The notes beneath the pieces were generated by a model. That model searched no databases. It saw only the letters and a program-made list of their open reading frames with translations, and was not told the DNA's origin. A stretch of 64,000 nt of DNA, from the NCBI GenBank assembly GCA_947629315.1, contig CANRDB010000001.1:4829-68828 (forward strand). The letters are read 5' to 3'. How positions within the stretch are numbered: position 1 is the first letter of the stretch; each line of letters begins with the position of its first letter. This DNA is from an uncultured Bacilli bacterium (GTDB lineage: Bacteria > Bacillota_I > Bacilli_A > RF39 > UBA660). A program made the position numbers and the translations under genes. Shown one piece after another: positions 5,987 to 42,743 of the stretch.

Positions 5987-6083
5987 AAATCTTCCTCCTT
6001 CAATCTTTCATGTCTTCATTATACTACTGGATATTTTTCTTGTCAATAGTTTTCGCGAACAAATGTATGTAATTTTTGTATCT

Positions 6084-6602
6084 TTATTTTTCCACTTTTT
6101 CTATTTTATCAACACGATACTTATGCATTTTTTTATATTGGCGCAATTTTGTAACCCAAAAATAAAAAACTGCTAAATAAAGACTATTCCACAAGATAGA
6201 AGAAACAATGCTTTGAAAATAAATGGACCATTGCCACATAGACATTCCTAAAAGAACAAAGAACACCGCTAGTACAGTACGATATAACCATATAATAGTC
6301 ATGCCGACTAAATAGGTATTCATAAAATCTATCGCTATATAGTGAAAAATCGTATGAACAAGGTAACTCACTCCTAAAAAAAGCAAAGCATGTAAAAATA
6401 AGGTATTCGTATAAGAAATATCATATAGAGCACCCAAGAGAAAAGCAATGCTATAATAAAACTTTTTAGATTGCCGAAAATAAGGATAAATAATAACTAG
6501 CGATAATAAAGTACAGAGAGGTTGCAATACTGTATGAGGCGAAACTGTACATAAAAGTATATCATCTAGTAGAAAAGACGACAATAAGACGATATAAATC
6601 AC
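6084..6602 (-). CDS. mreD: Rod shape-determining protein MreD-like
   Basis: 172 aa polytopic membrane protein whose start overlaps the mreC stop by 4 nt, the conserved position for mreD. Confidence 0.6.
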   Translation of the reverse strand: MIYIVLLSSFLLDDILLCTVSPHTVLQPLCTLLSLVIIYPYFRQSKKFYYSIAFLLGALYDISYTNTLFLHALLFLGVSYLVHTIFHYIAIDFMNTYLVGMTIIWLYRTVLAVFFVLLGMSMWQWSIYFQSIVSSILWNSLYLAVFYFWVTKLRQYKKMHKYRVDKIEKVEK

Positions 6603-7450
6603 GAAGCATCGACCTCCCGAACCAAAACAGTAACAAACGACAAATCTCCCGTAGAAGCACTTGGTTTTACAGAAACCTCTTTTGCTAAATCAAAACTATC
6701 CGTCGATACATCTTGAACGGTACCAATGAATAAACCGCTTGGAAAACGATCACTTAATCCCGTCGTCGTCACTTTCGCACTGATTGGAATATCAACATAA
6801 TCACTAATTCCCTCAATTTTATAAGTTTGCGTCTTCGCATCATAACCAGTCAATAAACCATACGCATATTTTCCTTTTGTCAATTCTATTTTCACAGATA
6901 CCTGATTCTCCAAATGTGGACTAGTTAACAACTTCACCGTACTCGTATGGGCACTAGTTTGGGAAATATAACCAATCACACCACCATTTCCCATAACCGC
7001 CATATCTACCTGAAGACCATCTTTCTCTCCTTTATTAATCGTAAATGAAGATAACCAATAAGTGGCATCTCTACCGATAACAGAAGCATGAACCACTTGA
7101 TATTGAGATAAAGAAGCATCCATTTCTAACAATTTTTTCAATTCTTCATTTTCCTTGGTCAATTCCTCAATCGTCGCTCTATTTTGTTCTTCCGATTGAT
7201 AGTCCCGCTCTAACTGTTCATGTTCTTCCACCAATTGATCGTATTTGGAAAAGAACGATAACTTATCTTGAAGAAATCGAACGGGTGTCGCAAAAATATT
7301 TCCTACTACCAAGACCGTATCTTTCACACCTTTTTCAATCCAAGATAATTTTCTATTTACAGAAATAGAATAAGCCGTAACTCCTAATAGGAATGTAATG
7401 ATAACGATCCCAATGATACCGTACTTTTTCCAGTTCTTTTGAAATTTCAT
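6599..7450 (-). CDS. mreC: Rod shape-determining protein MreC
   Basis: N-terminal TM, a coiled coil (ENEELKKLLEM) and beta-barrel repeats (GNGGVIGYISQTSAHTSTVKLLT, FPSGLFIGTV). Confidence 0.8.
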   Translation of the reverse strand: MKFQKNWKKYGIIGIVIITFLLGVTAYSISVNRKLSWIEKGVKDTVLVVGNIFATPVRFLQDKLSFFSKYDQLVEEHEQLERDYQSEEQNRATIEELTKENEELKKLLEMDASLSQYQVVHASVIGRDATYWLSSFTINKGEKDGLQVDMAVMGNGGVIGYISQTSAHTSTVKLLTSPHLENQVSVKIELTKGKYAYGLLTGYDAKTQTYKIEGISDYVDIPISAKVTTTGLSDRFPSGLFIGTVQDVSTDSFDLAKEVSVKPSASTGDLSFVTVLVREVDAS

Positions 7451-13448: not shown

Positions 13449-14405
13449 ATGTTAAAAAACATGTCTATGAAAAAAATTATTACCTCTTCTATTGTATTGA
13501 TGATTGTCTCTCTTCTTTCCTTTCTCCCCAACAAACCCAATAATCAGTTAGAAATTCCAACGAGTATTGAATATGTCAGTCAGAATGTTCAAACCCATAC
13601 TATCTACTTATTGGATAACAATAACTATATCAGTAAAACATCAATTAAAATTCGTTCGGAAGATAAAGAAGACATCGCTCGAGAATTGCTAGAGACTATG
13701 ATTCAAGAAGGAAAAAATAGCGATCAAATTCCTAGTGGATTTCTTCCCATTATCCCTAGCAATACAAAAATTAATGCCTTATCCATTCAAGAAGATACTC
13801 TGAAAGTAGACGTTAGTGCAGAGTTCCTAAATACCTCCAAAGAATTAGAAGAAAAACTGATTGAAGCTGTCGTCTATACTTTAACGAGCATTGATGGCAT
13901 CCAAAACATTATTCTTTATGTAGATGGGAACATCCTAACGAAACTTCCGCAAACGAAAATCAATCTTCCTACCACTTTGAATCGTCAAATTGGCATTAAC
14001 AAAACATATCAATTAACCGCTCTTACCAACGTCACCGCCACCAACATCTACTACATTCGTAAATACAACGATAACTACTTCTATACGCCTGTTACTAAGA
14101 TTACCAATGACAATCGAGAAAAAATAGAAATTATTATTGAGGAACTTAGTAGTTCGGTTCCTCAAAACAATCTCATGAGTTTTCTAAATAGCAATACCCA
14201 ACTACTGAATTTTACGATTGATTATGACCAAATGATTATCTGTTTTGATGAATACATTTTTAACGATTTAGAAACCAAAGACATTTTGGAAGAAGTCCTC
14301 GATACCATCTCTCTTTCCATATATGATAACTATCCAGTAGAAGAAGTAATCTTTCAAGTCGATAACCAAGAAATTGCGAAAACTACTGTAAAATCTATTG
14401 AATAA
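13449..14405 (+). CDS. GerM-domain-like spore germination/sporulation protein
   Basis: N-terminal signal/anchor and two repeated domains with GerM-like motifs (LLETMIQEG...IPSGFLPIIPSNTKINALSIQEDTLKVDVSAEF). Confidence 0.5.
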   Translation: MLKNMSMKKIITSSIVLMIVSLLSFLPNKPNNQLEIPTSIEYVSQNVQTHTIYLLDNNNYISKTSIKIRSEDKEDIARELLETMIQEGKNSDQIPSGFLPIIPSNTKINALSIQEDTLKVDVSAEFLNTSKELEEKLIEAVVYTLTSIDGIQNIILYVDGNILTKLPQTKINLPTTLNRQIGINKTYQLTALTNVTATNIYYIRKYNDNYFYTPVTKITNDNREKIEIIIEELSSSVPQNNLMSFLNSNTQLLNFTIDYDQMIICFDEYIFNDLETKDILEEVLDTISLSIYDNYPVEEVIFQVDNQEIAKTTVKSIE

Positions 14406-14651: not shown

Positions 14652-17600
14652 ATGAGGTGTCACATGAGTCAATCGGATAAATTAAAACAAATAACAGGTA
14701 GAGTAAAACGAGAAATGGACCGCACCATTCGTGAAATTAATCGTTACTATGCCAGTTATAGTCAAGAATTAGAAAACAGACAGATTCTAGATCCTAACAA
14801 CGAAGAACAAAGGGCTTTAGCAGAGCAATTCTTTCAAAGAGAGACAGAAAATCTAAAACAGGAATTACATCAATTCATCGAATCTGGCATCAATGAAGAA
14901 GATGCCTTAAAAAGTGAATTACCTCGCGCTTATGCTTTAGTCAAAACAGCGAGTAAATTTTTATGGAACAAGCCTCACTATGATGTTCAATTAATGGGTG
15001 GTATTCTTTTAAATGATGGATATGTTTCCCAAATGGCTACTGGGGAAGGAAAAACGCTAACAGCTGCCCTCCCCGCCTATTTAAATGCTCTTCTCGGTAA
15101 AGGAGTACATGTCTTAACACCAAATGCCTATCTAGCAAAAAGAGACCAAGAAGAGATGGGGGAACTCTACGGCTTACTAGGTCTATCTTGTGGTCTTGCC
15201 AATACTGAACGATTCGATTTTACACAGGCAGATGTACAGCGCCGAATGGATGAAATTATAGCGCGAGAAGTTTCCGAACTTTCTTATCAAATCGACTGTT
15301 CTTCAGCAGGAACTAAAAAAGGACGAAAAACGGATACGGAAACAAGCCAAAGAAGAATTAAAAAATGAATGTCTCGCAAGAAAAAGAAAAGTATATCAAA
15401 TGGATATTGTCTATGGAGCAACCCATGCCATTGCTTTCGATTATCTATGGGATGGTCTTGCGCAAGAGGAACAAGGGACCGTACAACGGATTGGACAACC
15501 AAACTTTGCTATTATCGATGAGGCAGATGACGTACTTTTTGACAGTGCGAGAACTCCTTATATTATTTCCGGTTCTCAAGAAGATGAGGAATTGAGAATT
15601 CGAAGTGAAGATGCCGAAAATGTGGTGAAATCTATCAAACAGGCAAATGAGGCAGTTTCCTATCTATACGATACCATTCAATTTTGGCAAAGAAAAAATG
15701 GAGAAGTTCTAGAAGGAGAAATCCCTGAAAATGAGAAACACAAACGAAAAGATTATGTCTCTTTTGAAAATGACATGAATCTAGCGCTCATTACGACATC
15801 GCAAACTCGTGAATGTGAATTAACCACCCTAGGAGAAACGATTATTTTTCAAAAGTACTATGGACAACAAATTCAAGAGATATTAAATAAAAATCAAGAT
15901 CTTATTATGTCATTGGAACAAAATGGAGCTCCCCTACTAAAATCGAATGTGGACTATTTCATTAATTTAGATGGAGAGATTTCTCTTGCTCCTCGCGCAT
16001 TTGCTTACTTAGTCGCGGGAGAATACATCTCAGAGTTATCTAATCTATTTGTTCATTTCCGTGGGAAAGAACTACTCCAAGATAGTGAATTTATTCAAAA
16101 TGCTTTGAAAGCATGGTTCACGTATCAAGAAGGACATGATTATGCCTTTGATGAGAAAACTTCATCAGTAGTACCAATCATTAACGGTCGAATTTACAAA
16201 GGTAGAAAATACGCTAAAGGATTTCAACAAGCTCTAGAAGAAAAAACCAAAGTATTATTACAAAAGCAATTGGGAGATAGAGCGCCAAAAATCAACGAAT
16301 CCAGACTAACAGAGACATTAGCGTCTATCCCTACCAATGCTTTCTTTGCTCGCTACCAGAAAGTTGGAGGAATGACGGGTACTTCTGCTGTTTTTGCTTT
16401 CAATAACCTTTATGGTCTAGATTCCTATGCGGTACCGAGAAACCGTCCTCGACAAGTTATCGATCACGGAGAGAGATTCTATACAAATAAGGATGCGAAA
16501 TATGAAGCTATTTTCCAATTGGCATTACAAGCCTATCAAACAAAACAACCACTCCTTATTTCTACCACTTCTACGGAAGAGAGTGAACTTCTACAGAAAT
16601 ATTTAATATCTCGATTAGAACAATATCAAAGAGGACTTCCAGAACGGGAAAGAAGAGCGATTAAGATTCCAGTTTTAAATGCCAGTGTTACCAAGTTGGC
16701 AGATGAAGCTAAAATTATATCTAACGCCGGTATTCCTGGGGCGATTACCATTGCAACTGAAATGGCTGGTCGTGGAACAGATATTAAATTAGGAGGAGAA
16801 GTTCCTGATAAACAAGAATTAATTCAGTCCATGCTTAAAATTAAAGTAAGGTCTCTTGTGGAAAAAAGAAAAAAAGCAGGTCTTGTCGATGAACAAAAAT
16901 ATAAAACACAACTGACTTATAAAAAAAGAATAGACCAAGAAGCAAGACAGTGGATTATTGATAACATCGGTATGGATGCCATTGCCAAAGAAATTGAAGA
17001 ACCTTATCGCCTATTAAAACAAGAAAAAGAACAACGAGAAAGTTTTATTAAAAACAACTCAGCGTTTAAAGGATTAAAAGTTGTCGTTTGTGGACATTTC
17101 CCATCTGCACGGACAGATGACCAAGTCAAAGGTCGATGTGGAAGACAAGGTGATCCAGGAGAATATATCTTCCTAAGTGATCCTGATGATTTAGCGCATG
17201 TTGGTATCAATCCTACTACCATTGAACGTCTCAAGATTATCGCTAATAGCCAACCAGATCACTGCATCGTAGAAACAGCGAACTCCAAACTATTCCACCT
17301 TCGAAAAATGATTTTATCCGCACAACGTCATAACGATAATATGAGTCATGAAAACATTCTCTCCTCTCTTCAATTTGATGCCGCTATCAGTACTTGCCGA
17401 GAGAGTGTTAGAAAAGTAACTGATCGATTCAAGCAAACAGAAAATTACATATCTTATATGAAGATAGCGATTGATAATACCTGTCAAAGTATTCTAGAAG
17501 GTTCTTCTGAAAATAAGAACTATACTTATCCTGATATAGAACGAAGTACCATCCAAAAGGCACATCTTAATCTTCCAAAAGTATGTTCTCTTTGTGAAGA

Positions 17601-18366
17601 CTTCCTTGGGGTAGAGATATCCCCTGAACTACTCGCATCCGCTAGAACAGTTCGGGATGTGAAAAATATAATCGAACAGAAAAGTACTCAGAGATTAGAA
17701 GTCTATATCGATCAACAGAAAAAGGAACAAATCAAAAAGTTAAAAGAGAAATATCAAAAACATAATGCGAGAATCTTAAACATTTCGGAAATCGTCAATT
17801 TATTCCGACAGACAGGAATTCAAGGATTAAAAGGTTATGTGCAAGAGCGTCTTAACTTCAAAAAATATGCAAAACTTTCCGATATCGAATTAGAAGCGGA
17901 AGTTACCGAAACGCTCAATGAATCTTTCAAAGAAAAATTTTATCAAACTATCAATCGTGCATGGGATAAATTTGAAGAAGATATTGAGGAATTTAAATTG
18001 CAAGTACAATGGACGAATCAATTTGAGTCTCATCCGTTGTCACCAGAAAGCATTCAAAGTTCTATCCAACGTGATTTCTTTCACTGGATGGATACATACC
18101 AAGCAAGACTCGTCCATGATACGATTCATCCAAGCATTTCTAAAGAGAAAGGTCCAAAGGAAGTGTATCCCGTAAGAATTACGACCGAGGGCATCCAAAG
18201 AGTTGCCGATGATTATGATGAAGAATTACAGGATGAAATTACCAACATTTCGGAAGAGGCATCTGTTCTTGGAGTACTTTCTAGTGATGAAATCGTCCCA
18301 TACAAATTAAAGCCATACGTCAGTATGCCAAATCGAAACGTAGAAAACAGAGGAAGAAGAAGATAA
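14652..18366 (+). pseudogene. Divergent SecA-like (SecA2-type) translocase ATPase, split by a frameshift near 15262-15320
   Basis: ORF 14652..15368 carries [41 protein letters not shown] 15400..18366 continues with DIVYGATHAIAFDYL, IIDEADDVLFDSARTPYIISG, ATEMAGRGTDIKLGG and GRCGRQGDPGE. The second frame is already open from 15262 and reads ...RKRKVYQMDIVYGA, matching SecA. The likely real start is ATG 14664. Confidence 0.75.
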
Positions 18367-18447: not shown

Positions 18448-18717
18448 ATGAATGATGAAATATATCAATATGCTCTACAAAAAATTGAGTGTGATAGTCA
18501 ATTCAAGCCAATTGGATGTTATGGTAATTCCCGTGGCAGTACTGGCCCAACTGGCCCTACCGGTCCGACTGGTCCCCAAGGACCCGCTAGCATCACCATA
18601 GGTACCACAACAACAGGCGCTCCAGGAACAAGTGCAGCTGTTACCAATTCTGGTACTAATCAAAATAGTATTTTAAATTTTGTGATTCCTGCAGGAGCAA
18701 CTGATGCTATGTCATAA
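18448..18717 (+). CDS. Collagen-like protein gene, segment 1 of 4. As it stands it is an 89-aa ORF whose last 5 codons and stop come from element IE-1
   Basis: AGGAGG SD and ATG at 18448. It encodes a 31-aa N-terminal region, then GSTGPTGPTGPTGPQGP, then the module ASITIGTTTTGAPGTSAAVTNSGTNQNSILNFVIPAGAT. The host part ends at 18700 inside GGAGCAA|CTG. Confidence 0.8.
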   Translation: MNDEIYQYALQKIECDSQFKPIGCYGNSRGSTGPTGPTGPTGPQGPASITIGTTTTGAPGTSAAVTNSGTNQNSILNFVIPAGATDAMS

Positions 18718-21122: not shown

Positions 21123-23120
21123 TTGAATCAAAAAAGAGTGGCATTATATCTACGATTATCCAAAGAAGATATCGACAAGCCAACCAAGTTCTCTATCAGC
21201 GAAAGTATCAAAAATCAAGAACTATTACTGCGTGAAGAAGTGAAAAAACACCCTGATTGGGTCGTAGTAGCTGTCTATTCTGATGAAGACTTTTCAGGAG
21301 CAGGAACTTATCGACCAAGCTTTGACAAAATGATTCATGCCTGTGAAAAGCACATGATTGATATCATTCTCTGTAAAAGTCAGTCCCGTTTTTCTAGAGA
21401 TATGGAATTAATTGAAAAATATATTCATAACAAATTTAAAGAATGGAATATACGATTCATTAGTATCGTAGATAATGCCGATACTGATAACGATGGCAAT
21501 AAAAAATCTAGACAGATTAATGCTCTTGTCAATGAATGGTTTCTAGAGGATTTATCCGATAATATTCGGGCAACTTTACGAACAAAATGGCAGCATGGAG
21601 AATGTACCGCTGCTTTCGCTAAATATGGATTTCTAAAAGATCCCCAACATAAAAATCACCTAATCATAGATACGGTTGCTAGTCAAACCATTCAAGAAAT
21701 TGCTCATCTCTTTTTAGAGGGAAAAGGTCCAGAAACCATCGCTCACATTTTAGAACAGAAGCATATTCCTAGTCCTTATGAATACAAACTACAAATGGGA
21801 AGTAAACTAAAAATTCCTTTGCTTTCCTTAAACCATCCAAAAATAATTACTAAAAACGGAAAATATATTTTTACCCTTTTTCCAAGTGGAGAACCAATAG
21901 ACCATGTCGTCCTATCCATCCTACCATTTCAAGATTACGATATGACACTAACTCTCATAAAACAAAGTGGCAATGTAAAGGTTTATTATTCCCAGGAGAA
22001 ATTCTCTTCTGCTATCGAAACCGTATTGCCGGTTGAACATTCTTCATTTTGGAGACAATTGCCTATCAATCTTTCTATTTCTCATATTCAACTACTGGCT
22101 ATCTATTGTCTTCCAAACAATTTAGAAAAAACTTATTTAGAATGGGAAATAAACATCCATACCCTACCGTCTCATGATTTTTCTTTAAACATCCAATCCT
22201 TTGATGCAATACACCAACCAATTGATTTTTGGCAGTATCGAATCAGAAAAAAATATCAGTGGAATAGTCGGACAATCTATCACATTTTGAAAGATGAAAC
22301 TTATCATGGTACCTTAATTCAAGGAAAAACAAAGCGAATCAGTTATAAAAATCATACTAGTATTGCTACTCCCAAAGAGCAATGGTATGTTCAAGAAAAT
22401 ATTCTCCCTAAAATTCTAGATGATCAAACTTGGATAGCTATTCAAAATAAATTACAACTACATCCACGCGCAAGCAAAAATGGAAAACACCCTATCTTTA
22501 CTGGAAAAGTTTTTTGTGGAGTATGTGGAAAACCTCTTCAAAAAAACTCGAGCAGTTCTCTTGCTTCCCCTGTTAAAAAAGAATATTTAATTTGTAAAGC
22601 AAGAAAAGAACATTGGAAGAATTGTGAAAACAAAAAATCATTTCCCGTTTTAGAATTACAAAAATTAATCATTACTCAATTTCAAAATTTATGGAATTCC
22701 TATTACGATATGACTACCTTAAAGCAGATTCATAAGGAAGAACCCCATCATCAAACTATAGACGATCTCATGAAAGAAGAACAAAATTTACAAGAAATTA
22801 TCCAGCAGAATAACCAAATTCTTTATCAATTATACAAAGATAAAAGCACTGGCCTCATGGATGATTCTTGTTTTCATACCCTACTTCTACAAAATCAACA
22901 GGAAATGGATACTTATCACCAAAGATTGCAAATGATTGCCCAAGAGTTAAAACAGATTCAAACGAAACAGGAATTTTTCATGTCTACTGTGTGTGAATTT
23001 CTCAATACTCATTCCTTTGAAGACTATTTTTCAACCATTCTACAGCATTTTATTAGCAGCATTTTCATTGGAAAGCTGAACCATCATCAAAGAACAATCC
23101 AAATTCATTGGAAAATCTAA
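21123..23120 (+). CDS. Large serine recombinase Rec1 (665 aa, TTG start)
   Basis: [12 protein letters not shown] (catalytic Ser), [10 protein letters not shown], a recombinase domain, a zinc ribbon (CGVCGKP...[11 protein letters not shown]), a coiled coil and a C-terminal IQIHWKI tail. AGGAG SD 7 nt before the TTG. Carries about 150 extra aa compared with Rec2. Confidence 0.9.
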
Positions 23121-23281
<161 letters not shown>

Positions 23282-23288
<7 letters not shown>

Positions 23289-24983: not shown

Positions 24984-26012
24984 TCATTTTCGCTGTTGGC
25001 TAATATCTAATACCCATAAAATATTCGATGGTAGAATACTTCCACAATACGAGCATATCTTATCAAAGAGTCCCACATTGGCGCCACAATTGTGACATTT
25101 TTTCACACTATTCATCGTAAACTTCGGATAATAATTTTGATTACGAATCAAGGTTACTGTTTCTTTTCCCTGCACTTTTTTGATGCGACCATTGCGTTCA
25201 AAATACTTTCGAATAATAAAAGTAATTCGAATGGCAGGAATATTCCCCTTCTTGATAACTTTATAAGTATCATACTCTAAAATTTCAAAATCTACTAAAT
25301 CTTGATATTGAGGAAAAATTTTCTCATCATAGTAATGCACCAACAATTGGTAATTTAAATCTTGAATAATCTTTTGATTACTCATCCGAACTTTATCAAT
25401 CATAATTCTATCATTCCTTAAGTCACGATAGGTAATCACTTTTACCAAAAGATAAGGAATCAAAAGAAAAGTATACAATAGATGAAGAGTAAATAGCATA
25501 ACAGGTAGTGTCACGAACATCAACATAACGGCAATAAACCAAGGATACTCTCCTGACTGTAAAGTTCCCATAAACGATATACCTGTCAAAATCATGCAAG
25601 TGCTTCCCAAAAAGATTTTATACTTTTTCATAGAAAAAATCTGTTTAAAGGATTGTGTCAAATTTTTTTGATGAACTCCCTGTTCTAAATAAAAAGAAGC
25701 TCCACAATAAGGGCAACCATCGTAAAACTCTTTTTCAGTAGCATGATATCCACATTCAGAACAAGTAAATTCATTATCCCCTCTAGATAATGTCATTGTA
25801 TAAGTTATGTTATCATCAAATTTCTTTTCACGATAAAGACGTTTTCCACCTTGATAATAATTTTTCTCTATCTTATTAGCTTTATAAACAGAATCGTTTC
25901 GGTTTCCATTTAAAGTACGAACAAATAACTGATCTTTATGTCGAAAAATCTCCTCTACTACAAGATTCTTTTTAGCAAGTCTTTGTAAATGCATTTGTAA
26001 AGGACTTGGCAT
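24984..26012 (-). CDS. Membrane protein with two zinc ribbons (IE-2 cargo)
   Basis: CSECG..CPYCG near the N-terminus, at least 3 TM helices, and a C-terminal CHNCG..CSYCG. Confidence 0.6.
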   Translation of the reverse strand: MPSPLQMHLQRLAKKNLVVEEIFRHKDQLFVRTLNGNRNDSVYKANKIEKNYYQGGKRLYREKKFDDNITYTMTLSRGDNEFTCSECGYHATEKEFYDGCPYCGASFYLEQGVHQKNLTQSFKQIFSMKKYKIFLGSTCMILTGISFMGTLQSGEYPWFIAVMLMFVTLPVMLFTLHLLYTFLLIPYLLVKVITYRDLRNDRIMIDKVRMSNQKIIQDLNYQLLVHYYDEKIFPQYQDLVDFEILEYDTYKVIKKGNIPAIRITFIIRKYFERNGRIKKVQGKETVTLIRNQNYYPKFTMNSVKKCHNCGANVGLFDKICSYCGSILPSNILWVLDISQQRK

Positions 26013-26075: not shown

Positions 26076-26115
26076 ATTTTGACAATGAACTATGGAGCAA
26101 CTGGTCCAGTAGGTC
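26076..26115. other. attR of IE-2
   Basis: ATTTTGACAAtgaactatGGAGCAACTGgtccagtaggtc. Confidence 0.7.
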
Positions 26116-26140
26116 CTACTGGAGACGTTGGCCCTACGGG
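26101..26140 (+). pseudogene. Collagen-like gene segment 3 of 4 (40 nt)
   Basis: Reads (a)ct GGT CCA GTA GGT CCT ACT GGA GAC GTT GGC CCT ACG GG = [13 protein letters not shown]. It lies between attR2 and attL3. Confidence 0.65.
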
Positions 26141-26168
26141 TCCTACTGCACTCACTTAAAAGTGGCAC
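26125..26168. other. attL of IE-3
   Basis: gttggccctacgGGTcctactgcactcacttAAAGTGGCACT. The arm is the perfect inverted partner of AGTGCCACTTT at 29419. Confidence 0.6.
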
Positions 26169-27830: not shown

Positions 27831-30925
<3,095 letters not shown>

Positions 30926-30960: not shown

Positions 30961-31899
30961 TTATTGTATTAATGATGGAATACCTTGAACATCTACTTCC
31001 ATGCTATATCCATCGTCACCAATCGTAGCATCTGTAATAATCTTATCGATTATATCTACATAACTAGTTCCATAAGTATTATTAGCCGTCCGAATAACCA
31101 CACGAGCAGCTGTTACAGTATCTTTTTCTCTATAGGCATCTACTAAATTCATACCTTGCATATTATAACTAAACATCAAATACTGATTACCATTGACTGC
31201 TTGACGAGTAAGGGTTACATTTGTTGCCCCTGAACCTTCTATTTGTGCACGAAGTTCTTCATCACTATGACTACTAAGACTACTAAAACTTCCAGGAATC
31301 ATTTCAACTTGAGCAACCCATGTAGGATTATTCTCATCATCGGTAATTAATAGCCATTCTCCATCAACGGCTGTTGAATAATCTACTGGTACTTTATAAC
31401 TTACATTTCCTACTTTTACATTAAAGGTATTAGCAACTGGTGTAACAGATCCTCCACTAGAATTACTTCCCGTATTACTGTCGGAATTACTTCCTGAATT
31501 ACTAGTACTAACATCACACTTATCACCTTTACAACCGCCACCATTATTATCCTCTTTCTTATTAGAAACTAATAGAACTACTACAACGGCTACTGCAATC
31601 ACTACTACTGCTATCACGATAGCAATAATCATCTTATTATTTCCACCAGCCTTTGGTGGTACACTATTCATTGGTTGTTGCATCACTGGAGGAACTGGTG
31701 ATTGTGGTGCCCCAGGAACAGCTGGCATAACAGGTGTTACAGGGGATGCAGGTGCCCCTGGAGCGGCTTGTTCGATTGGTGCAACAGGTGTTGCAGGTGC
31801 TACTGGAGTTACAGGAGCAACAGGCGTTGCAGGTGCAGTTGGTGCTACTGGTGAAACAGGCTGAACTGCTGGTATTGAATTTGCATTATTTTCATTCAT
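30961..31899 (-). CDS. Membrane-anchored protein with a Pro-rich N-terminal tail
   Basis: MNENNANS, then PVAPxxP repeats, a TM ([21 protein letters not shown]), a Ser/Asn/Gly linker and a roughly 170-aa outside domain. Its N-terminus is paralogous to that of 36709..38907. Confidence 0.65.
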
Positions 31900-32152
31900 T
31901 TTTATTTCCTCTTTCCTTCTTCTTTATACTCAACACATTCATTGAGTCTATAAATGTTTCTTCAAACGATGAATTTTTGAGTAAAACAATGTTGTTTTCT
32001 GACTGCCGCTTTCCTTCTTAGTTCCTCCTTACTAACTCGTATTCCATTCCAAACTACTAAGAAAGTTACAGCAATCTATCTTCTACCTACTCTATAATGA
32101 TAATACCCCTTTTTAAAGGAATAGTCAAGTATAAAGTTACTTCTTTTATAGG

Positions 32153-33802
32153 TTATTCATATGGATAAGTAGACGAACTCACATTTGCCACTTCTTGAAT
32201 CATATCATCTGTAATCGAAGAATCTGTAGCTTCTAAAGAAATTTTCATAAGAGTAAATTCTGAAAATGTATAAAGCATCACTTTTTCAATGACACGATTC
32301 TTACCATCGTGATAAAATCCCTTATAAATATAATACTCACGACCATTCATTTTCTTTTTTTTAGAAAAAGTAAGCAATTGATAGGTGCCGTATCTAGAAT
32401 TATAATCTTTTATCGTTTTATTTAAAATATCGATGTGAGAAGTAATGATTTGTTCCGCATCAGTATAAACATTATCCAACTGGTAATCTAACATATATTT
32501 ATAGTAAGAACTTAAGAATTCGTAAGTATAATCCATATAGTAAGATCTACTACCAAATATATCAGTAGAATATAAATAATTCGTAATCTCTAGCCAATGA
32601 TTTGGTAATTGGATAGTCCATTGTTCTGCAAGATGTTCGGACTGATTGACAATCCTTTTTAGATTAGAGTATAGATTATCTCCCCTCATCTCTGTATTCG
32701 TATAAAAACCTACTTCTTTAGCAGAAGTTACACGGATATGATTGACCAATTCAGCAGGTACACTATCGCTATCAATGGTGATTCTCAAAGTACAGTTTTT
32801 CGCAATCTCAAAAAGCATTGTAACTTCTTCTGTTTCAAAAGGATTTATATAGGATTCACTACTTGAGAAAGTATAGGTTTCTCGAAAAATATAAAGTGGA
32901 TAGGCGCTGTCTTCTACTTTTTCAAGAGTAGTTTGATAGTTTTGATACATTTGAGAGTTCTGTCTTTTAAACTGGGAATCTGCATACATATCATCCAAAA
33001 CAGTATAGATTGGATATAAACTGGTCATAAAACTAACTTCAAAATTTAATACTGTATCCTCATGTTCATACCGATATCGATAATGAGAGACATTTGACTC
33101 AAAACGAGTTAATTCTAAAACATCCGGTATTTCGTATTCAATTCTATAGTTTACACTAGCGAGTTCCCCTTTTTTGGTTTTGAGAAATTGGTTATTTAAA
33201 TCTTTATCTTGATTCCAGCCAATACTAGAAAGTTCCATTGGGTACTGATAATTTTGCTGCTCCTGTTGAGGATGAACTAGTGAGAAATCTTCTAACATGT
33301 ATTCAAAACTATCCAATAAAATATCAAACTGTTGATGAGGTGCCTGATAACTCCACATCACGATTCCCTCATCTATTTTGGTAAAAATAAATAAAATCTG
33401 ATTCTCTGCCGATTCATAGAGAACCTGATATCCTGGATATTGGCGTTTAGAAATTGTAATATCTTCTTCAGCAATTAATTCATAACCTTCATTTTGTTTA
33501 CTAAATTCATATAGTAATGTTCCTTTTAAATTTTCCAATGTTGTATAATCCGTTTCTTCTAGAGGAAGATACTGTAAAGAAACAGAACTCTCATCATGAC
33601 TTAAAACCGTCTGATATTCCTGTTCTTCTTGTACTTTCCATGTAGTATCATAATGGAATGTATAATAGTCATTCTCATATACTCTCGTTTGAATACGACT
33701 TGGATTCCATACTATATAGGCAATTACACAAGAGATTCCTAATGTCATCGTTACAAAGAAAGCAATCACTACTAATTGATATTTCTTCCACCAGTTTTTC
33801 AT
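32153..33802 (-). CDS. Hypothetical N-terminally anchored protein
   Basis: 549 aa with one N-terminal TM. Its start overlaps the stop of the upstream gene by 4 nt. Confidence 0.55.
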   Translation of the reverse strand: MKNWWKKYQLVVIAFFVTMTLGISCVIAYIVWNPSRIQTRVYENDYYTFHYDTTWKVQEEQEYQTVLSHDESSVSLQYLPLEETDYTTLENLKGTLLYEFSKQNEGYELIAEEDITISKRQYPGYQVLYESAENQILFIFTKIDEGIVMWSYQAPHQQFDILLDSFEYMLEDFSLVHPQQEQQNYQYPMELSSIGWNQDKDLNNQFLKTKKGELASVNYRIEYEIPDVLELTRFESNVSHYRYRYEHEDTVLNFEVSFMTSLYPIYTVLDDMYADSQFKRQNSQMYQNYQTTLEKVEDSAYPLYIFRETYTFSSSESYINPFETEEVTMLFEIAKNCTLRITIDSDSVPAELVNHIRVTSAKEVGFYTNTEMRGDNLYSNLKRIVNQSEHLAEQWTIQLPNHWLEITNYLYSTDIFGSRSYYMDYTYEFLSSYYKYMLDYQLDNVYTDAEQIITSHIDILNKTIKDYNSRYGTYQLLTFSKKKKMNGREYYIYKGFYHDGKNRVIEKVMLYTFSEFTLMKISLEATDSSITDDMIQEVANVSSSTYPYE

Positions 33803-35496
33803 AATTTCACCATCACAATCAATAAGTATTGAAACTGCGACATGACTATGACTTTATATTTTTTATTTTCATACACATATCGATTATCTTCATTGGATAC
33901 TTCTTGATATCCATCCTCTAATAATTTTGCTTGAAAGGCCGATGCATATTGCATATTACTGACGTATTCTGGAGTTTCGTTTTTATAACGTAGACTGACA
34001 ACCCCGTCTTGATAACTTCCCTTGATTAGTTTTAATGGAATAGTCTTTTCAATATCACCAATGGCAGCATACTTCTTCCAAATTTTATCAGGAATCGTGT
34101 TCACTTCTTGTTCTTGAGTATCTTTTGTATACCGATAATATCGTTCTTTCAAATCATCAAAAGGAACAGACACAATGGTATCAAAATCTTTTTGCTTGAT
34201 GTTATCATATGCTTCTTCTATCAATTCTACAGGGAGAGAAAAAGAAACATTACTATCAATAGACACAGGAACATTCATTCCCACAACCGCACCATCTAAA
34301 TTGAATAATGGACTTCCCGCATCAGATGCTCTCATCGGAATGATAGTTCGTACATATCCTCTCATACGAAGGGCTATTCCAGACTGCAAACTAAATCCCA
34401 CACCAGTCTTGCTATTTACCGTAAAGATTGGATCTTCTAATTGGGCATTCGTAGGACTAATCGTGACTGGATTTCCTTTTTCCTCTTTTAATTTCAAAAG
34501 AGCGATATCCGTATTGGGATTGATGGTGATAATTCCATCCAAATCATAATAATTTCCTTGATAATCTCGGATAGCAATATACTGTGCATTCTCTAAGGAA
34601 CTTTTAATAAAACTCCAAGTTGTTATCAAAATTCCCTCTTTTAAAAAGAAACCATGAGCAGTTGTAATCAATTCATTGTTATAATAAGAATTCAGTAAAA
34701 CAACACTATCAATGGTACGAGTTAACAATTTTTGAAAAGTATTTTTAGAAACATGGTCTAATTGATCATAGTTGTAAATGGAAGAAAAGTTATCACTTCC
34801 CCGAAAAGAATCAATAATATTGGTAGTATTTTTACTTTCTAAAGTCTCTATATTTTGATAGTAGACATTGATACTAGATTCATCAAAAGCTTCCTCAAAT
34901 ATATAGAACAGTTTATACTCACCATCTATTTTTTGCCATTCATAGTAAAGAGTTATATCGACATTCATTTCCTCTTTGTATAAAGGATTATTCTCATCGA
35001 TATTCATCATGGAAACATTAGGCACAAGAATAGTAGATATAAAACTTTTATCATCCACTGCTGTCACATAAATCTCTCCCAAGATAGAGTAACGACAATC
35101 TCGCAAATTGATAGCTTGAAAGGTTTGACTTAAATTCGTATAAGTATAAGAATTGAGAAACTCATCATCATCAGATTGAACAGGTGTGGAATAACGAAAA
35201 TCCATAAAAGTATTATAACGTTGATAATACTCTAACGTCGTTTCCTCTTCTCCGTTCGCTAAAAACAATAATTCCGTAACCTGTTTACTTTTCTCTTTGA
35301 TTTCTTGTTCCACATCATTACTCTCTACCTGTATCTCTTTCGTTAATGTGTATTGGGAATCAAATTCTTTCATGAGGTCTTGCAATTGCTTAGTATTCGT
35401 TAAAATGGCTTTAGAGGAGTCAAAATGCAAAGTCATAGCATACAAAGTAGTTATACTCATGAGACAGAGCATTAGAAATATACTAACTTTCTTCAT
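33799..35496 (-). CDS. Secreted protein with a trypsin-like (S1C/HtrA-type) fold segment, possibly catalytically degenerate
   Basis: Signal peptide. DIALLKL (Asp block) and SDAGSPLFNLDGAVVGMN (Ser block) are present. The His block reads ILITTWSFI and has no His. Confidence 0.45.
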   Translation of the reverse strand: MKKVSIFLMLCLMSITTLYAMTLHFDSSKAILTNTKQLQDLMKEFDSQYTLTKEIQVESNDVEQEIKEKSKQVTELLFLANGEEETTLEYYQRYNTFMDFRYSTPVQSDDDEFLNSYTYTNLSQTFQAINLRDCRYSILGEIYVTAVDDKSFISTILVPNVSMMNIDENNPLYKEEMNVDITLYYEWQKIDGEYKLFYIFEEAFDESSINVYYQNIETLESKNTTNIIDSFRGSDNFSSIYNYDQLDHVSKNTFQKLLTRTIDSVVLLNSYYNNELITTAHGFFLKEGILITTWSFIKSSLENAQYIAIRDYQGNYYDLDGIITINPNTDIALLKLKEEKGNPVTISPTNAQLEDPIFTVNSKTGVGFSLQSGIALRMRGYVRTIIPMRASDAGSPLFNLDGAVVGMNVPVSIDSNVSFSLPVELIEEAYDNIKQKDFDTIVSVPFDDLKERYYRYTKDTQEQEVNTIPDKIWKKYAAIGDIEKTIPLKLIKGSYQDGVVSLRYKNETPEYVSNMQYASAFQAKLLEDGYQEVSNEDNRYVYENKKYKVIVMSQFQYLLIVMVKL

Positions 35497-36680
35497 GACA
35501 ATCTCTCCTTTAATACCGCCACGATATATTTACTCGCATCCTTAGCTTTATTTCCATTTAAATACGTATCGTGAAAAGCTTCAGCTATCGTCTCATCATA
35601 GATATATCGACCACTATTATCACGTGCTACCGCATAAGAAGATATGGTAGCTCTCCATTCATCTATGGATAACTTACTTTGAAAATCTTTTTGATAATTT
35701 TGATAGGCTTCTTCTACAATTCCCTGAGCATACTCACCAGACTTTGACTCCACTCCAATTTGTGATAACACACTATAGTTTTCAGAATCAATTAATAAAA
35801 TAGAAGTAATTCCATGGCTTTTTAAAAGAGCGATGAAAGACAAATAATGTCCCATCTCATGGGCAACTGGCGAATAAATCGTCGCATTGGGTGGAAAATG
35901 TCCAGCGTGAGAAGCATCTTCGGTTGCTACCTTTAATCTCGTAGGATTTAAAAAGTAAGAAGAACTTAAAAACATTTGGGTCTTAATTACCAATTGGTAT
36001 TGGGAAGATGAAATATTCGCAAAAGCAAAAATCGGTAAAAAAGAAGCAATGACACCACTACGAGACATACTCTCATTTTTAAGAGTTAAATTCGTTAGAT
36101 ATCCCCTTGTCGTAGGAAATTCTTCATATATCTTCTCAAATACTTTTCCCAGTTCTTCAGCAAACTCCACATCCATTTCACATAAATTAATAGCAGTAAT
36201 TCCATATTTCACCGTAAAAGTCTTCTCTAACTCTTGTATTTTTAAAGGACACTTCCTCTTTTGTAGTTTAGAATCCTCTTCAATCAATTGATAAGCTAAT
36301 TCTTTCGTATCTAGATGATCACATTTATAAGTATTATCAGAAACAACAGAAGAAACAGTTCCTCCTGGTTGCATAACCGTTCCCTCTTGTAATTCACAAA
36401 GATTATTGGTAAGTTGCATCGTAGCTACTTTCTCCTCTAAGTGATTCTTGCGAAAATAATAGGATGGCTCTTGATGGAACAAAAGATATCCTAACAACAA
36501 TAAACCACATAGACAAATACTCATCCCGGACCCAGCAAGAATCATTAGAACGTGATTTCTATTTTTCGTCTTTTTACTACTATAACCACAATTTGGACAG
36601 TACCGAAACCGAGTTTCTAATTCGTGATGGCAGTGGAAACACTTCATATCATAGCCTCCTATTCTCTTCCATTTTATCAC
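35493..36680 (-). CDS. Zinc-ribbon + TM + HExxH metalloprotease-like protein
   Basis: N-terminal CFHC..CPNCG, one TM, and the motif VAHEMGHYLSF in the outside domain. Confidence 0.55.
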   Translation of the reverse strand: MIKWKRIGGYDMKCFHCHHELETRFRYCPNCGYSSKKTKNRNHVLMILAGSGMSICLCGLLLLGYLLFHQEPSYYFRKNHLEEKVATMQLTNNLCELQEGTVMQPGGTVSSVVSDNTYKCDHLDTKELAYQLIEEDSKLQKRKCPLKIQELEKTFTVKYGITAINLCEMDVEFAEELGKVFEKIYEEFPTTRGYLTNLTLKNESMSRSGVIASFLPIFAFANISSSQYQLVIKTQMFLSSSYFLNPTRLKVATEDASHAGHFPPNATIYSPVAHEMGHYLSFIALLKSHGITSILLIDSENYSVLSQIGVESKSGEYAQGIVEEAYQNYQKDFQSKLSIDEWRATISSYAVARDNSGRYIYDETIAEAFHDTYLNGNKAKDASKYIVAVLKERLS

Positions 36681-36708
36681 AATTTTGACAAGAAAAAAAT
36701 AGGTTTCC

Positions 36709-38907
36709 CTATTTTATTTCAACCGGTTTTGTGTAAGTGATTTCATTAGAGATATCCCTTACTTCAAAAGCAAAATAGTATCCTTTTCCTTTTGGAACAT
36801 TTTGAAGTACTAATTGATAATCACTTGGTGTTGTTTGATAAGATTGAGCAGTAGCCGTACTTTCCCAATCTTTCGCAAAATATCCACTATTATCTAATAA
36901 CCGATACTTATTAGTTTCAAAGGTTAGTTCAGAATAATCCTCTAACTTCAAAATAGTCATTGATGGTAATAATTCTCTATCATCATCTGACTTTCCTACC
37001 ACATTGACAATAGAACCTTTGTTACTACTCGTTTCAATGGTAGCAACTGCTGAATGATTAATAGAATCTTTGACTACGATATTTGCATTATAAACATTCT
37101 TACTTTTCTGTTCCACAAAAATTGGTCTTTTCGTCTTATTCTTTGAATTAGAATACATCATAATCTTACCATCAAAATTAGCTTTCAATTTTCCATTGTT
37201 ATCTAATGTTGTATCATCACTTTGATAGATGAGAGAATAATCATTTCCATTCTTTTGAAAAATCATATAGGAAGCATTCGCAAAACTTTCTTTTTGAGAA
37301 GCACTAAGTTTCATAGAATAATCATTATTCGCTACACTAACAGTATTCTTTGATAAATCCATATTATAAGTAGAATTGGTCTTTCGATATAAATCAAATT
37401 GCTTTAAGAACGCGGTAAAGGTACTATCTTTTCTACTAGGAAGGTTAGAGAGTGCCTCTAAATTTCTATCAATAACTTCCCCACCATTATATGGGAAGAA
37501 AATAGATAATCCTTTTGAATCCTCCTCTAAGGCATAATTATATTTTACTGCCTCTTTAATAGCTGTAAGTACTTTATCGGCTTCAGTAGGCGCTAAAGCT
37601 TGTAACTGAAAGACAAGTGTATATAAATCAACACTATCGAAAGCAGGTTCAGTTGCTCCATACTGGAAGATATTCGCTCTCGTACGAGCAATGGTATAGT
37701 AATCTCGATTGACACTTAATTTATCGGCAAAAGCATCTAATGTCGTTTCAACTTCTTTAATTTTTGATAAATCCAAAATAGAATAAGTCGTTGGAGCATT
37801 CTGATAACGAGCATACATATCAATAGGAGTCGTATTGAGGTGATCAATGAATTTCTTTCCAAATTCATATCCCCTATCAGAAATCTCAATCTCCTCTAAA
37901 AACTTAAACTTATCAATAGTTGCTGCTGCCAAAGATACCTCTTCAGAGGCTACCATATAATTAGCATAATCATCCATGACACTAGCAACTTCTAGTCCTC
38001 CTAATAAACAATTAATAAATAAAACGGAATCTAATTTTTCTTTACTAAATGGACTACCTTTTAAAGCCTCTTCCAATTCTGCTAACGAAATATTGTCGCC
38101 ATAGATTTTATCAGACTCCAACCCTTGAATTCCAGAACCATGATCCCAGAAAATCAAATCATAGTACTCTGCTGGATATTCGGTATAAGTTTGTGTTAAA
38201 AAGGTTTGAAGAGTTTGAGCAGCCCCCATATTTTTGACTTCTTGTTGTTTTACTTTTTGAAAACCACTTGGTGTCAATCGATAAACAGAACTTTCGTCCG
38301 CTGCGATGTAATCATTTTTCCATGTTTTAGATCCACCTGCCATTAAAATAATGTTATTATTCTCTAAATCAATATTTTCTGGTTTAATATAACCCAACTC
38401 ATTACTAGCATATCCACCAGAATGTTCAAGATCAGATCCTACCATATAAATTAAAATCGTACGATTTACTTTCTCTGCTTGTGGTTCAACAGTAGGCTCC
38501 TCTTTATCTTTTTCAGGAGATTGATTCATCCATAGAGCAACTACTACCATAGCAATGGCTGCTACGACTGCCACAACAATAATCACTAACCATAACTTGT
38601 TATTTTTCTTTGGTGGCACTGTATTCTGCGTTGGTATGGCCCCCATATTCGCTACTGGTGGTGTCGGTATCACTGGGGATGGTGTTTGCGGTTGAGCGGG
38701 CGCCACTGAAGGAACTGGGGATGGTGCTACTCCAGGGGCAGTTGGCATAACAGGTGTTCCCGTTGCAACTGGTGCTACTGGAGAAACTGGTTCAATTGGT
38801 GCAACAGGCACAGGTGCCACTGGAGTTGGCGTTTGTGGTTGCGTGGGTGCCATTGGTACTACTGGTGGAGTAGTACTTTCCATATTGGAATTATTATTTT
38901 CATTCAT
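36709..38907 (-). CDS. Membrane-anchored clostripain-like (peptidase C11) protein with a Pro-rich N-terminal tail
   Basis: MNENNNSN, a Pro-rich region and a TM, then RTILIYMVGSDLEHSG, YDLIFWDHGSG (His) and VLFINCLLGGLEVA (Cys), in the C11 order and spacing. Confidence 0.7.
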   Translation of the reverse strand: MNENNNSNMESTTPPVVPMAPTQPQTPTPVAPVPVAPIEPVSPVAPVATGTPVMPTAPGVAPSPVPSVAPAQPQTPSPVIPTPPVANMGAIPTQNTVPPKKNNKLWLVIIVVAVVAAIAMVVVALWMNQSPEKDKEEPTVEPQAEKVNRTILIYMVGSDLEHSGGYASNELGYIKPENIDLENNNIILMAGGSKTWKNDYIAADESSVYRLTPSGFQKVKQQEVKNMGAAQTLQTFLTQTYTEYPAEYYDLIFWDHGSGIQGLESDKIYGDNISLAELEEALKGSPFSKEKLDSVLFINCLLGGLEVASVMDDYANYMVASEEVSLAAATIDKFKFLEEIEISDRGYEFGKKFIDHLNTTPIDMYARYQNAPTTYSILDLSKIKEVETTLDAFADKLSVNRDYYTIARTRANIFQYGATEPAFDSVDLYTLVFQLQALAPTEADKVLTAIKEAVKYNYALEEDSKGLSIFFPYNGGEVIDRNLEALSNLPSRKDSTFTAFLKQFDLYRKTNSTYNMDLSKNTVSVANNDYSMKLSASQKESFANASYMIFQKNGNDYSLIYQSDDTTLDNNGKLKANFDGKIMMYSNSKNKTKRPIFVEQKSKNVYNANIVVKDSINHSAVATIETSSNKGSIVNVVGKSDDDRELLPSMTILKLEDYSELTFETNKYRLLDNSGYFAKDWESTATAQSYQTTPSDYQLVLQNVPKGKGYYFAFEVRDISNEITYTKPVEIK

Positions 38908-38926
38908 TTTTTTTACTCCTTACTTT

Positions 38927-39346
38927 TTATTGGCAAGTATAACCTTGCTCCTCTAAGTTTTTTTGATAATTGTCATAGGTTAGTCGTGAGAGTTGTAAAT
39001 CAGACATTGTTTCCTCACTCATCTTTTCAATATCATAGGTCACAACCATCGAATAACTCTTCCCATCGACTGTTGTTTTAAAAGTTACTCCTTTTTTATC
39101 GCCGTATTGTTGTTGTAACAATTTTTCTGACAGTTTTTGAGAAGACTGGGCCAACTCTTCACTTTCATAGGTTTGCGAATAAGTCGTTCTCACCTTGACC
39201 ATGACATCGTCTTTATAATCAACTTTATATTTTAAAACCGTACCGTCCTTTTCTACTGATTCACATTCCAATGTTTTATTATTTCCACAACCAGTTGTCA
39301 AAATAATAACACTTAAAATGATAAAACAAAGGATTGTCTCTCTCAT
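38927..39346 (-). CDS. Lipoprotein (DUF1307/YehR-like)
   Basis: Likely start MRETILCF after a GGAGG SD, lipobox LTTGC, small beta-rich body. Confidence 0.55.
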   Translation of the reverse strand: MRETILCFIILSVIILTTGCGNNKTLECESVEKDGTVLKYKVDYKDDVMVKVRTTYSQTYESEELAQSSQKLSEKLLQQQYGDKKGVTFKTTVDGKSYSMVVTYDIEKMSEETMSDLQLSRLTYDNYQKNLEEQGYTCQ

Positions 39347-42547: not shown

Positions 42548-42743
42548 AAAAAAGACCAAAGGTATAGGAGTGCATAACACGGTACCATCCTACTTTGGTC
42601 TTAATTTCTTGATAACGGATTTATCCGAAAATGTTTACATTTCTCTCAGAAGTAGATTCATAATCCTCTGATGATTCCCTCACACCAACTGGGAACTCTC
42701 TTCGCATCATCCTATTATTACTAGTCTTCGTCCTCGATTTCTA
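42548..42743 (-). promoter_or_regulatory. T-box leader (tRNA-sensing riboswitch) of serS
   Basis: The minus strand shows AGAGAGT, a distal CCAGTTGGTG, UCU triplets in the stem I 3' side, the T-box sequence AAAGTAGGATGGTACCGTG, and the terminator AAGACCAAAGG...CCTTTGGTCTTTTTT. Confidence 0.75.

Follow-up and report, generated by a model that had tools for sequence, protein, structure and literature searches.

Lethal factor (LF) and the Pro-Pro endopeptidases (PPEPs) make up the described proteins of MEROPS family M34 closest to the locus analysed here. In LF the third zinc ligand is reportedly surrounded by an ExxAEAF motif, and PPEP substrates are encoded beside the protease genes, an arrangement that a protease with dedicated neighbours would parallel. 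PPEPs carry HExxH on their active-site helix, and the third zinc ligand of PPEP-1 and PPEP-3 belongs to a Glu-Glu tandem (PMC12828418). A further point of comparison is the ectodomain of RsgI9, an anti-sigma factor of Clostridium thermocellum, which has been described as a protease-like binding domain (PMC12203970). We analysed an operon (30961-39346) in a stretch of 64,000 nucleotides (nt) of contig CANRDB010000001.1 from an uncultured Bacilli bacterium, hereafter the window, in which a membrane-anchored metallopeptidase is encoded next to an HtrA-like pseudoprotease and anchored proteins of binding type.

The operon comprises six co-directional genes in the list of open reading frames (ORFs), all on the minus strand: a small lipoprotein gene followed by five genes that we call G1 to G5 (coordinates throughout are window positions). 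The initial annotation had reported the latter five as a co-directional cluster that it did not recognise as a described system. All five are present where it placed them and with the architectures it gave them, and we found no described family, and no family name in Pfam, NCBIfam or PADLOC, for G2 or G4. A surface processing module, as was then proposed, is the most plausible function. More specifically, we regard it as an evenly balanced matter whether G2, G3 and G4, usually with G5, form an extracytoplasmic, membrane-associated complex for proteolytic processing or shedding in uncultured gut Bacilli. The genes concerned are the following (aa, amino acids).

35493-36680 as listed (395 aa), or 35493-36647 from the ATG (384 aa), minus strand: G2, predicted type-II membrane-anchored zinc metallopeptidase
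33799-35496, minus strand: G3, 565 aa, secreted HtrA/S1C-like pseudoprotease
32153-33802, minus strand: G4, 549 aa, N-terminally anchored, with predicted tandem Mog1/PsbP/DUF1795-like domains
30961-31899, minus strand: G5, 312 aa, Pro-rich tail, transmembrane (TM) helix, S/N/G-rich linker and ectodomain

We examined 44 loci, collected (before some later look-ups) by look-ups of G2 and G4 homologues and by a scan of one genome per species, and judged the presence of G3 and G4 at each by tblastn and ORF clustering. Tightly spaced G2, G3 and G4 genes recur in about 40 loci, all from uncultured metagenome-assembled genomes (MAGs) labelled Bacilli, Tenericutes, Erysipelotrichaceae, Clostridium sp. 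CAG:710 or Candidatus Coprovivens. G3 was found in 41 of the 44 loci and G4 in 40; in the genome scan alone (36 species-level loci), G3 stands beside G2 in 33 and G4 in 32. As to the loci without G3, L002 is a contig fragment that begins inside this gene, L036 is cut short by the contig end, and the G2 homologues of L042 and L043 are distant (29-31% identity) and stand alone; a further locus, L039, is cut off before G4. The order G2-G3-G4 is kept except in three loci with G3-G4-G2 (L034, L035 and L040). The two junctions said to have 4-nt overlaps, G2/G3 and G3/G4, do have them in the window. Across the loci a 4-nt overlap joins G3 to G4 in 27 of 38, the gap between G2 and G3 is at most 14 nt in 34 of 35, and that between G4 and G5 is typically 15-33 nt. 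The module exists in a long form, in which G4 has about 540 aa and a G5-like gene comes next (about 25 loci), and a short form, in which G4 consists of its first domain only (about 172 aa) and there is no G5. Identity to relatives is 40-63% for G2, 25-43% for G3 and 23-30% for G4, and in the loci examined G3 and G4 were seen only beside G2. The flanking genes differ from locus to locus (a MoxR/DUF58/VWA operon, a LemA-DUF2207-radical SAM operon, or housekeeping genes such as those for FtsK, PrsA, GlmS, Der and ThrRS), which argues that the module moves as a unit. Neither of the outcomes that would have told against the initial annotation, domain searches at odds with its protease assignments or a gene set found together in no other genome, was observed. 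The conserved unit, however, consists of G2, G3, G4 and usually a G5-like gene, and the C11 gene G1 belongs to it only in the nearest relatives.

The metallopeptidase G2 probably starts at the ATG at 36647, since the identical database protein P0003 and all homologues begin there. Its parts are listed below.

36585-36641, minus strand: C4 zinc ribbon, predicted cytoplasmic, a weak PF13240 match with a 23-residue knuckle
36477-36551, minus strand: TM helix, followed by an ectodomain of about 290 residues
35847-35861, minus strand: HEMGH zinc-binding/catalytic motif (His274, Glu275, His278)
35568-35597, minus strand: DETIAEAFHD, with the probable third zinc ligand Glu363 and a supporting Glu367, both putative assignments, at the place that ExxAEAF takes in LF

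The domain scan and an alignment of 39 homologues agree with the zinc ribbon, TM helix and HEMGH domain first read from the sequence. The motif, as HE(M/L/F)GH, is invariant in 39 of 39 and sits in a predicted helix (residues 270-288); equally invariant are D362, E363, T364, A366, E367, F369, H370 and D371, of which D362-E363 and E367 lie at the start of a second predicted helix (361-378), about 85 residues from HExxH as against about 40 in PPEPs. The AlphaFold2 (AF2) model has a predicted local distance difference test score (pLDDT) of 78.7, rising above 90 over the C-terminal 130 residues, and its overall ectodomain fold appears to be of the LF/PPEP (ATLF, M34-like) type. The catalytic domain is predicted to lie outside the membrane, a topology that fits both the Lys residues before the TM helix and the two Cys (C144, C167) after it, which are almost invariant.

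Like the PPEPs, G2 has a helix-borne HExxH, and its acidic pair D362-E363, with E367 beyond, resembles their Glu-Glu tandem and third zinc ligand (PMC12828418). Unlike the PPEPs and LF, to which it shows no detectable sequence similarity, it carries an insertion of about 45 residues between HExxH and the putative Glu ligand; the elements of Pro-Pro specificity in PPEPs are an S-loop, a diverting loop and a catalytic Tyr 7 residues before the Glu (PMC12828418), whereas the Tyr spacing in G2 differs (Y359/Y361 versus E363). G2 has an N-terminal TM anchor and a cytoplasmic zinc ribbon, whereas PPEPs are secreted or have non-covalent cell-wall-binding anchor domains, and its family is found in MAGs of uncultured Bacilli, whereas PPEPs have been surveyed in genera of Clostridiales and Bacillales (PMC8610288). 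Nor did we see a conserved extracellular Pro-Pro site in its neighbours. We therefore take G2 neither as a demonstrated member of M34 nor as a Pro-Pro endopeptidase; it would represent a new membrane-anchored family with an LF/PPEP fold and a probably intact active site, and looks to be the sole conserved member of the module with predicted catalytic activity. Its homologues form at least 794 clusters, none of them named in any source, and the ectodomain is recognised by neither Pfam, NCBIfam nor PDB sequence searches.

The second conserved protein, G3, has the following features.

35437-35496, minus strand: signal peptide, followed by an N-terminal domain of about 240 aa
34174-34710, minus strand: degenerate trypsin-fold domain (Trypsin_2 match)
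34603-34626, minus strand: ITTWSFIK, where HtrA has its catalytic His block (TNxHV), without His; aligned to RsgI9 and HTRA3
34303-34326, minus strand: SDAGSPLF, at the position of the GNSGGPL block, with the catalytic Ser replaced by Ala; aligned to HTRA1 and HTRA3
33979-33996, minus strand: SLRYxN, within a C-terminal domain of about 125 aa, the most conserved part of G3

A trypsin-like fold lacking the His block had been claimed for this protein, and indeed Trypsin_2 matches above its cut-off (38.7 bits against 27.6, E 2.1e-9), with the catalytic Ser gone as well. The best PDB matches are the RsgI9 ectodomain (7sjy, E 6.9e-9) and HtrA1-3, with DegP matched too; residues 263-441 align with the S1C-like domain (E 1.9e-7 for HTRA3). 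Alignments to these solved relatives place the catalytic His at Ser or Phe (ITTWSF), and SDAGSPLF aligns with GNAGGPL, the sequence of the HtrA mutants crystallised with Ser changed to Ala. Of 38 family members only one has His at the His position (otherwise S, N, D, T, K and others) and none has Ser at the Ser position (E, A, G, Q, V or W instead), while the Asp of the triad is mostly kept. Because His and Ser are lost family-wide, the G3 sequences are those of a pseudoprotease throughout the family. Like RsgI9, G3 has an extracellular protease-like domain that presumably serves for binding rather than catalysis (PMC12203970), but it is a free secreted protein and not the C-terminus of an anti-sigma factor. 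It differs from HtrA and DegP (S1C) in the loss of His and Ser and in having no PDZ domain, for which Pfam gave no match, and from both RsgI9 and HtrA in having N- and C-terminal domains of its own. Of the three protease-type signatures that the initial annotation had seen in the operon, all three folds are thus real, but among the conserved proteins only G2 looks catalytically competent.

The remaining two proteins are membrane-tethered and carry the features below.

33707-33781, minus strand: G4 TM helix, the N-terminal anchor
33293-33667, minus strand: G4 domain 1, the sole part kept in the short (about 172 aa) orthologues
32714-33178, minus strand: G4 domain 2, followed by a third, poorly modelled region
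31633-31899, minus strand: G5 Pro-rich tail; the C4 zinc ribbon usual in orthologues is missing here
31567-31632, minus strand: G5 TM helix, then the S/N/G-rich linker
30964-31452, minus strand: G5 ectodomain of about 150-160 aa, with a conserved YKVxxxGFTFxIPD...TW (23-sequence alignment)

As had been supposed, G4 is an anchored protein of 549 aa without a family match in Pfam or NCBIfam. Its model suggests an alpha-beta sandwich of Mog1/PsbP/DUF1795-like type. Compared with the envelope proteins of this type (PA0094, LpqN, MTC28, DcrB and PsbP), it lacks membership in their sequence families and would be a tandem array on an N-terminal membrane anchor. Profile-profile comparison among the G3, G4 and G5 domains suggested that the middle of G4 and its C-terminal part may be repeats (hhalign probability 80%), and showed no relationship between G4 and G5. 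A full HMMER scan with G4 returned 281 representatives at 50% identity, a homologue search with a 25-sequence G4 profile three proteins only, and an exact look-up none; a scan of the genome collection with G4 alone also gave no match, its peptide patterns being too specific. PDB sequence and profile searches with the G4 and G5 profiles were without match. The zinc ribbon is present in 20 of the 23 aligned G5 sequences (absent from the window, L013 and L024), and 3 of 26 G5 orthologues lack it, as do about 8 of 40 G2 orthologues.

In the complex that we propose, G2 would do the cleaving, as a type-II anchored zinc endopeptidase whose outside domain, of LF/PPEP fold, would bear the HExxH...E site. 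The secreted, catalytically dead G3 would most likely be a substrate-binding adaptor or regulator, and G4 and G5 would be membrane-tethered binding modules serving as scaffolds, as substrate receptors or as the protease's own substrates. The translational coupling suggests that the proteins are made together and in similar amounts. As the zinc ribbon is missing from some G2 and G5 orthologues, the conserved function probably lies outside the membrane, and the faster evolution of G3 and G4 relative to G2 would fit a role as adaptors or substrates. In the window lineage a putatively active C11 protease and a small lipoprotein would have been added upstream, and the 5' ends of G1 and G5 homogenised, giving them their matching Pro-rich cytoplasmic tails. 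The arrangement recalls iRhom and ADAM17, where a dead protease-family member is reportedly likewise dedicated to an anchored zinc metalloprotease (PMC13277793). The analogy is functional only; folds, organisms and topology are unrelated, and we claim no homology.

Several results weigh against such a complex. Foldseek with the AF2 model of G2 found nothing significant; Pfam, ATLF included, matched the ectodomain of none of the 39 members; and searches of PDB chains with full-length G2, with a 26-sequence profile and with an ectodomain-only profile retrieved no metalloprotease, LF or PPEP. Its link to M34 is one of fold and motif, and some 85 residues separate HExxH from the presumed Glu ligand, roughly double the distance in PPEPs. 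The G4 fold is of moderate confidence, its model having a mean pLDDT of 59 (70-85 over residues ~50-365) and a 3-sequence alignment behind it. Physical interaction between the proteins is something that we infer from gene order and coupling only, and a candidate substrate motif, for example a conserved Pro-Pro site in an extracellular segment, was not found.

Other explanations can be set against the same data. Signalling across the membrane, in which the dead HtrA-like G3 would sense an extracellular cue in the manner of the RsgI9 sensor domain, G2 would make the site-1 cleavage in G5 or in itself and the cytoplasmic zinc-ribbon fragment set free would be the output, we judge unlikely. It would agree with the RsgI9 ectodomain being the best solved relative of G3, with the anti-sigma-like layout shared by G2 and G5 (small cytoplasmic domain, disordered linker, TM helix, ectodomain) and with an XRE-type helix-turn-helix gene just upstream in L008 and L033; but no sigma factor or regulator is conserved beside the module among flanking clusters with annotated representatives, Pfam gave no RsgI_N or zf-HC2 match in G2, G3 or G5 (the ribbon being the PF13240 knuckle), Rfam gave no riboswitch or leader upstream, and the supposed output domain is dispensable, as the G5 of the window, L013 and L024 and the ribbonless G2 orthologues show. 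The operon abuts GT2-TPR glycosyltransferase, collagen-like BclA_C and large serine recombinase genes in the window and in L004-L007, L009 and L046, and the window encodes a GerM (Germane) domain protein (13449-14405, plus strand), from which the organism probably sporulates. Maturation of the spore surface or exosporium, by processing of BclA-like collagen glycoproteins or other spore-envelope proteins, might be imagined on these grounds, the more so as the PPEP-like CD1597 of C. difficile occurs in the spore proteome (PMC11460543). This we hold to be quite unlikely: the adjacency is limited to one small clade while some 30 other species offer unrelated contexts, the GT2 and BclA genes run opposite to the operon, and no sporulation promoter or regulator was identified.

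Since LF, edema factor and Certhrax are toxins with an ATLF fold, one might also think of an antagonism cassette, with G2 as an LF-like toxin, G4 and G5 as DUF1795/Eag-like chaperone or immunity proteins, and export through a type VII-like ATPase. A large FHA/FtsK_SpoIIIE (EssC-like) ATPase gene does lie within about 10 kb in five loci (L008 18574-21266, L028 8195-11158, L032, L038 and L042). It is parted from the module by the housekeeping genes for GlmS, Der and ThrRS, however, so that we read it as synteny and set aside a link to type VII secretion; WXG100, EssB, EsaA and similar components were seen neither in these five loci nor in the window. Moreover, G2 has a signal anchor and a cytoplasmic zinc ribbon without any LXG, WXG, PT-TG or Rhs delivery domain and shows strong conservation (45-63% identity) in place of polymorphism, G4 has a membrane anchor of its own and is predicted to face outwards, and there are no phage or plasmid matches and none from PADLOC beyond weak low-complexity matches to the tails, all of which makes antagonism very improbable. 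The same searches led us to discard mobile-element cargo and a defence system as candidates. Least probable of all is that functionally unrelated envelope genes have become neighbours by chance: all of these architectures are common in Firmicutes envelopes, but the near-constant presence of G3 and G4, which were seen only beside G2, the order kept in all but three loci and the 4-nt overlaps despite differing flanks speak against it.

The processing or shedding complex in which G2 to G5 would take part is preceded in the window by two genes that lie outside the conserved core.

36709-38907, minus strand: G1, 732 aa, membrane-tethered C11 (clostripain-family) cysteine peptidase
38596-38907, minus strand: G1 Pro-rich tail, 104 residues
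38527-38595, minus strand: G1 TM helix, a single anchor after the tail
37477-38448, minus strand: G1 C11 domain, then a C-terminal region of about 250 aa
38131-38151, minus strand: FWDHGSG, the catalytic His block with His256; solved C11 proteins have LWSHGTG and FWSHGDG in the aligned positions
37996-38019, minus strand: FINCLLGG, the catalytic Cys block with Cys300; LFDACYM is the aligned segment in solved C11 proteins
38927-39346, minus strand: small lipoprotein, about 139 aa from Met19, with the lipobox LTTGC at 39287-39301

The clostripain-like assignment of G1, with its His and Cys blocks, is confirmed by a match to PF03415 (Peptidase_C11; residues 154-477, E 9.6e-32, 111.3 bits, cut-off 25.8) and to the C11 zymogen 6mzo (E 3e-8), with the dyad motifs aligned. 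As His256 and Cys300 align with the dyad of the solved enzymes 6mzo and 6n9j, G1 is probably an active cysteine protease. It shares the family match and the dyad with the C11 peptidases (PmC11 and other gut-bacterial enzymes; PDB 6mzo, 6n9j, 3uws) but, unlike them, adds a long cytoplasmic low-complexity tail, a TM anchor and the C-terminal region, and is paired with small lipoproteins. Its orthologues (47-50% identity) and one to three lipoprotein copies join the module only in L004-L007 and L009; the lipoprotein paralogues of L004-L006 and L009 (L004 6533-7852; L009 6329-7747) always come directly before the C11 gene. The lipoproteins (about 135-145 aa) have a conserved Cys right after the lipobox and a C-terminal GY(T/S)C(K/Q), GYTC in the window copy, which had no match in Pfam, NCBIfam or PDB. 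The small lipoprotein is a lineage-specific companion of the C11 gene, and one might speculate that such proteins are cognate inhibitors or partners of the protease. In L047 the place directly before G2, occupied in the window by the C11 gene, is taken by an ISL3-family transposase gene (72-1343); this contig comes from the same sample (ERZ27249635) as the one encoding P0003.

The Pro-rich tails of G1 and G5 had been called paralogous, and their similarity does go beyond composition: composition-adjusted BLASTP gave an E of 4e-8, and blastn aligned the two 5' ends at 71% identity over 243 nt (E 1e-25), from 24 nt upstream of the ATG, while other Pro-rich (collagen-like) DNA of the window reached only about 1e-4. 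The tails of C11 orthologues are rich in Q/N/G/Y and run into the same PKKNNK-TM junction, and G5 orthologues begin with a zinc ribbon (MNCKKCG...CxNCG), after which comes a low-complexity linker that varies. The G5 of the nearest relative, L046, begins only 4 nt downstream of G4, with MNCKKCG...CKNCG, and continues into the same PVAP-rich linker, whereas both G1 and G5 of the window consist of a G1-type start (MNENN...) and a G5-type PVAP linker. From these alignments we infer that the 5' ends of G1 and G5 have recombined, or have undergone gene conversion, in this lineage, so that the matching tails appear to be a local event and not a design feature of the module. No remnant of zinc-ribbon coding sequence was found in the 253-nt spacer between G4 and G5. 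The tails should be cytoplasmic, given the Lys residues on the N-side of the TM helix and the zinc ribbon that occupies this side in orthologues, and on account of this location we set them aside as G2 substrates.

The gene ends follow each other at 19 nt (lipoprotein to G1) and 61 nt (G1 to G2), and the G4-G5 spacer is an outlier against the spacing typical of relatives.

31900-32152, minus strand: G4-G5 spacer, with one promoter-like site at 32128-32100

Because the lipoprotein gene is co-directional and ends 19 nt before G1, the transcription unit probably starts there. Consensus scans gave no more promoter- or terminator-like sites in the operon region than in shuffled sequence. Rfam found T-box leaders and tRNAs only, none of them within the operon region, and we accordingly set aside control by a riboswitch, whether for c-di-GMP, as for PPEP-1, or other. 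One T-box leader (42563-42743, minus strand) precedes the seryl-tRNA synthetase gene.

The neighbourhood of the module shows some further regularities. A MoxR-DUF58-VWA-VWA-TPR (Bat-like) operon often flanks it, on either side and in either orientation (L004, L009, L011, L016, L020, L044), as does the LemA-DUF2207-radical SAM operon (L008, L010, L015, L016, L019, L024); these adjacencies could reflect synteny or a loose functional association. In L008 (15584-18292), L015, L022 and L033, G5 is followed by additional small proteins (143-271 aa) that combine a zinc ribbon with a TM helix, together with a conserved 224-aa TM protein without Pfam match, and in these lineages the module may be longer. 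The three G3-G4-G2 loci have genes of type IV pili, for PilC/T2SSF and prepilin peptidase A24, just upstream (~5100-7300). The initial annotation had also mentioned the neighbouring collagen-like and sortase genes. The adjacency to the collagen-like and GT2 genes holds in the closest relatives only, and that to sortase B is not conserved; as no sorting signal was noticed on reading the six C-termini, without a dedicated motif search, we discarded a sortase B link.

Beyond the operon, a large serine recombinase gene (27831-29420, plus strand) is followed, in frame after its stop, by a collagen-like GPT/GD(I/V) repeat stretch without start codon (29421-29830, plus strand), the end of which resembles the N-terminus of BclA_C proteins of relatives. 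The stop of a second recombinase gene (21123-23120, plus strand) precedes a '..FAATGPTG..' repeat stretch at 23131-23283, and further collagen-like stretches lie at 18535-18591 and 26094-26141, all in direct orientation. This suggests that recombinase-bearing elements have inserted in, or shuffle, a BclA-like exosporium gene. Between the two recombinase genes is a 342-aa ORF with a C-terminal zinc ribbon (24984-26012, minus strand). SecA is split into consecutive plus-strand ORFs (14652-15368, 238 aa, and 15400-18366, 988 aa), about 330 aa above the usual SecA length in sum and with an interrupted DEAD-like domain match, which may reflect an intein, an insertion or a frameshift.

All of the folds in the module are known ones. 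The three protease signatures and the twin Pro-rich tails, which first catch the eye in the window, are embellishments specific to the lineage. Neither the G2 family, of LF/PPEP fold, TM-anchored and with a zinc ribbon, nor its obligatory pairing with a dead HtrA and a PsbP-like protein, nor the restriction of this set to uncultured gut Bacilli, appears in the family libraries and open-access literature that we searched. It is possible, though we are doubtful, that the module represents a new envelope machine, in which an anchored LF/PPEP-fold protease of a new gut-Bacilli metallopeptidase family would be governed by a dead HtrA and PsbP-like receptors, a bacterial counterpart of iRhom-ADAM17. 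Its carriers are uncultured gut Bacilli with reduced genomes. Three families found without annotation or name, G2 (at least 794 clusters), G3 and G4 (281 representatives), could be given family models. If our reading is true, it would extend the LF/PPEP fold from secreted toxins and adhesin-releasing enzymes to an anchored enzyme in chromosomal contexts that include housekeeping genes, and the obligatory dead HtrA would provide a clear example from bacteria of one protease with a pseudoprotease of its own.

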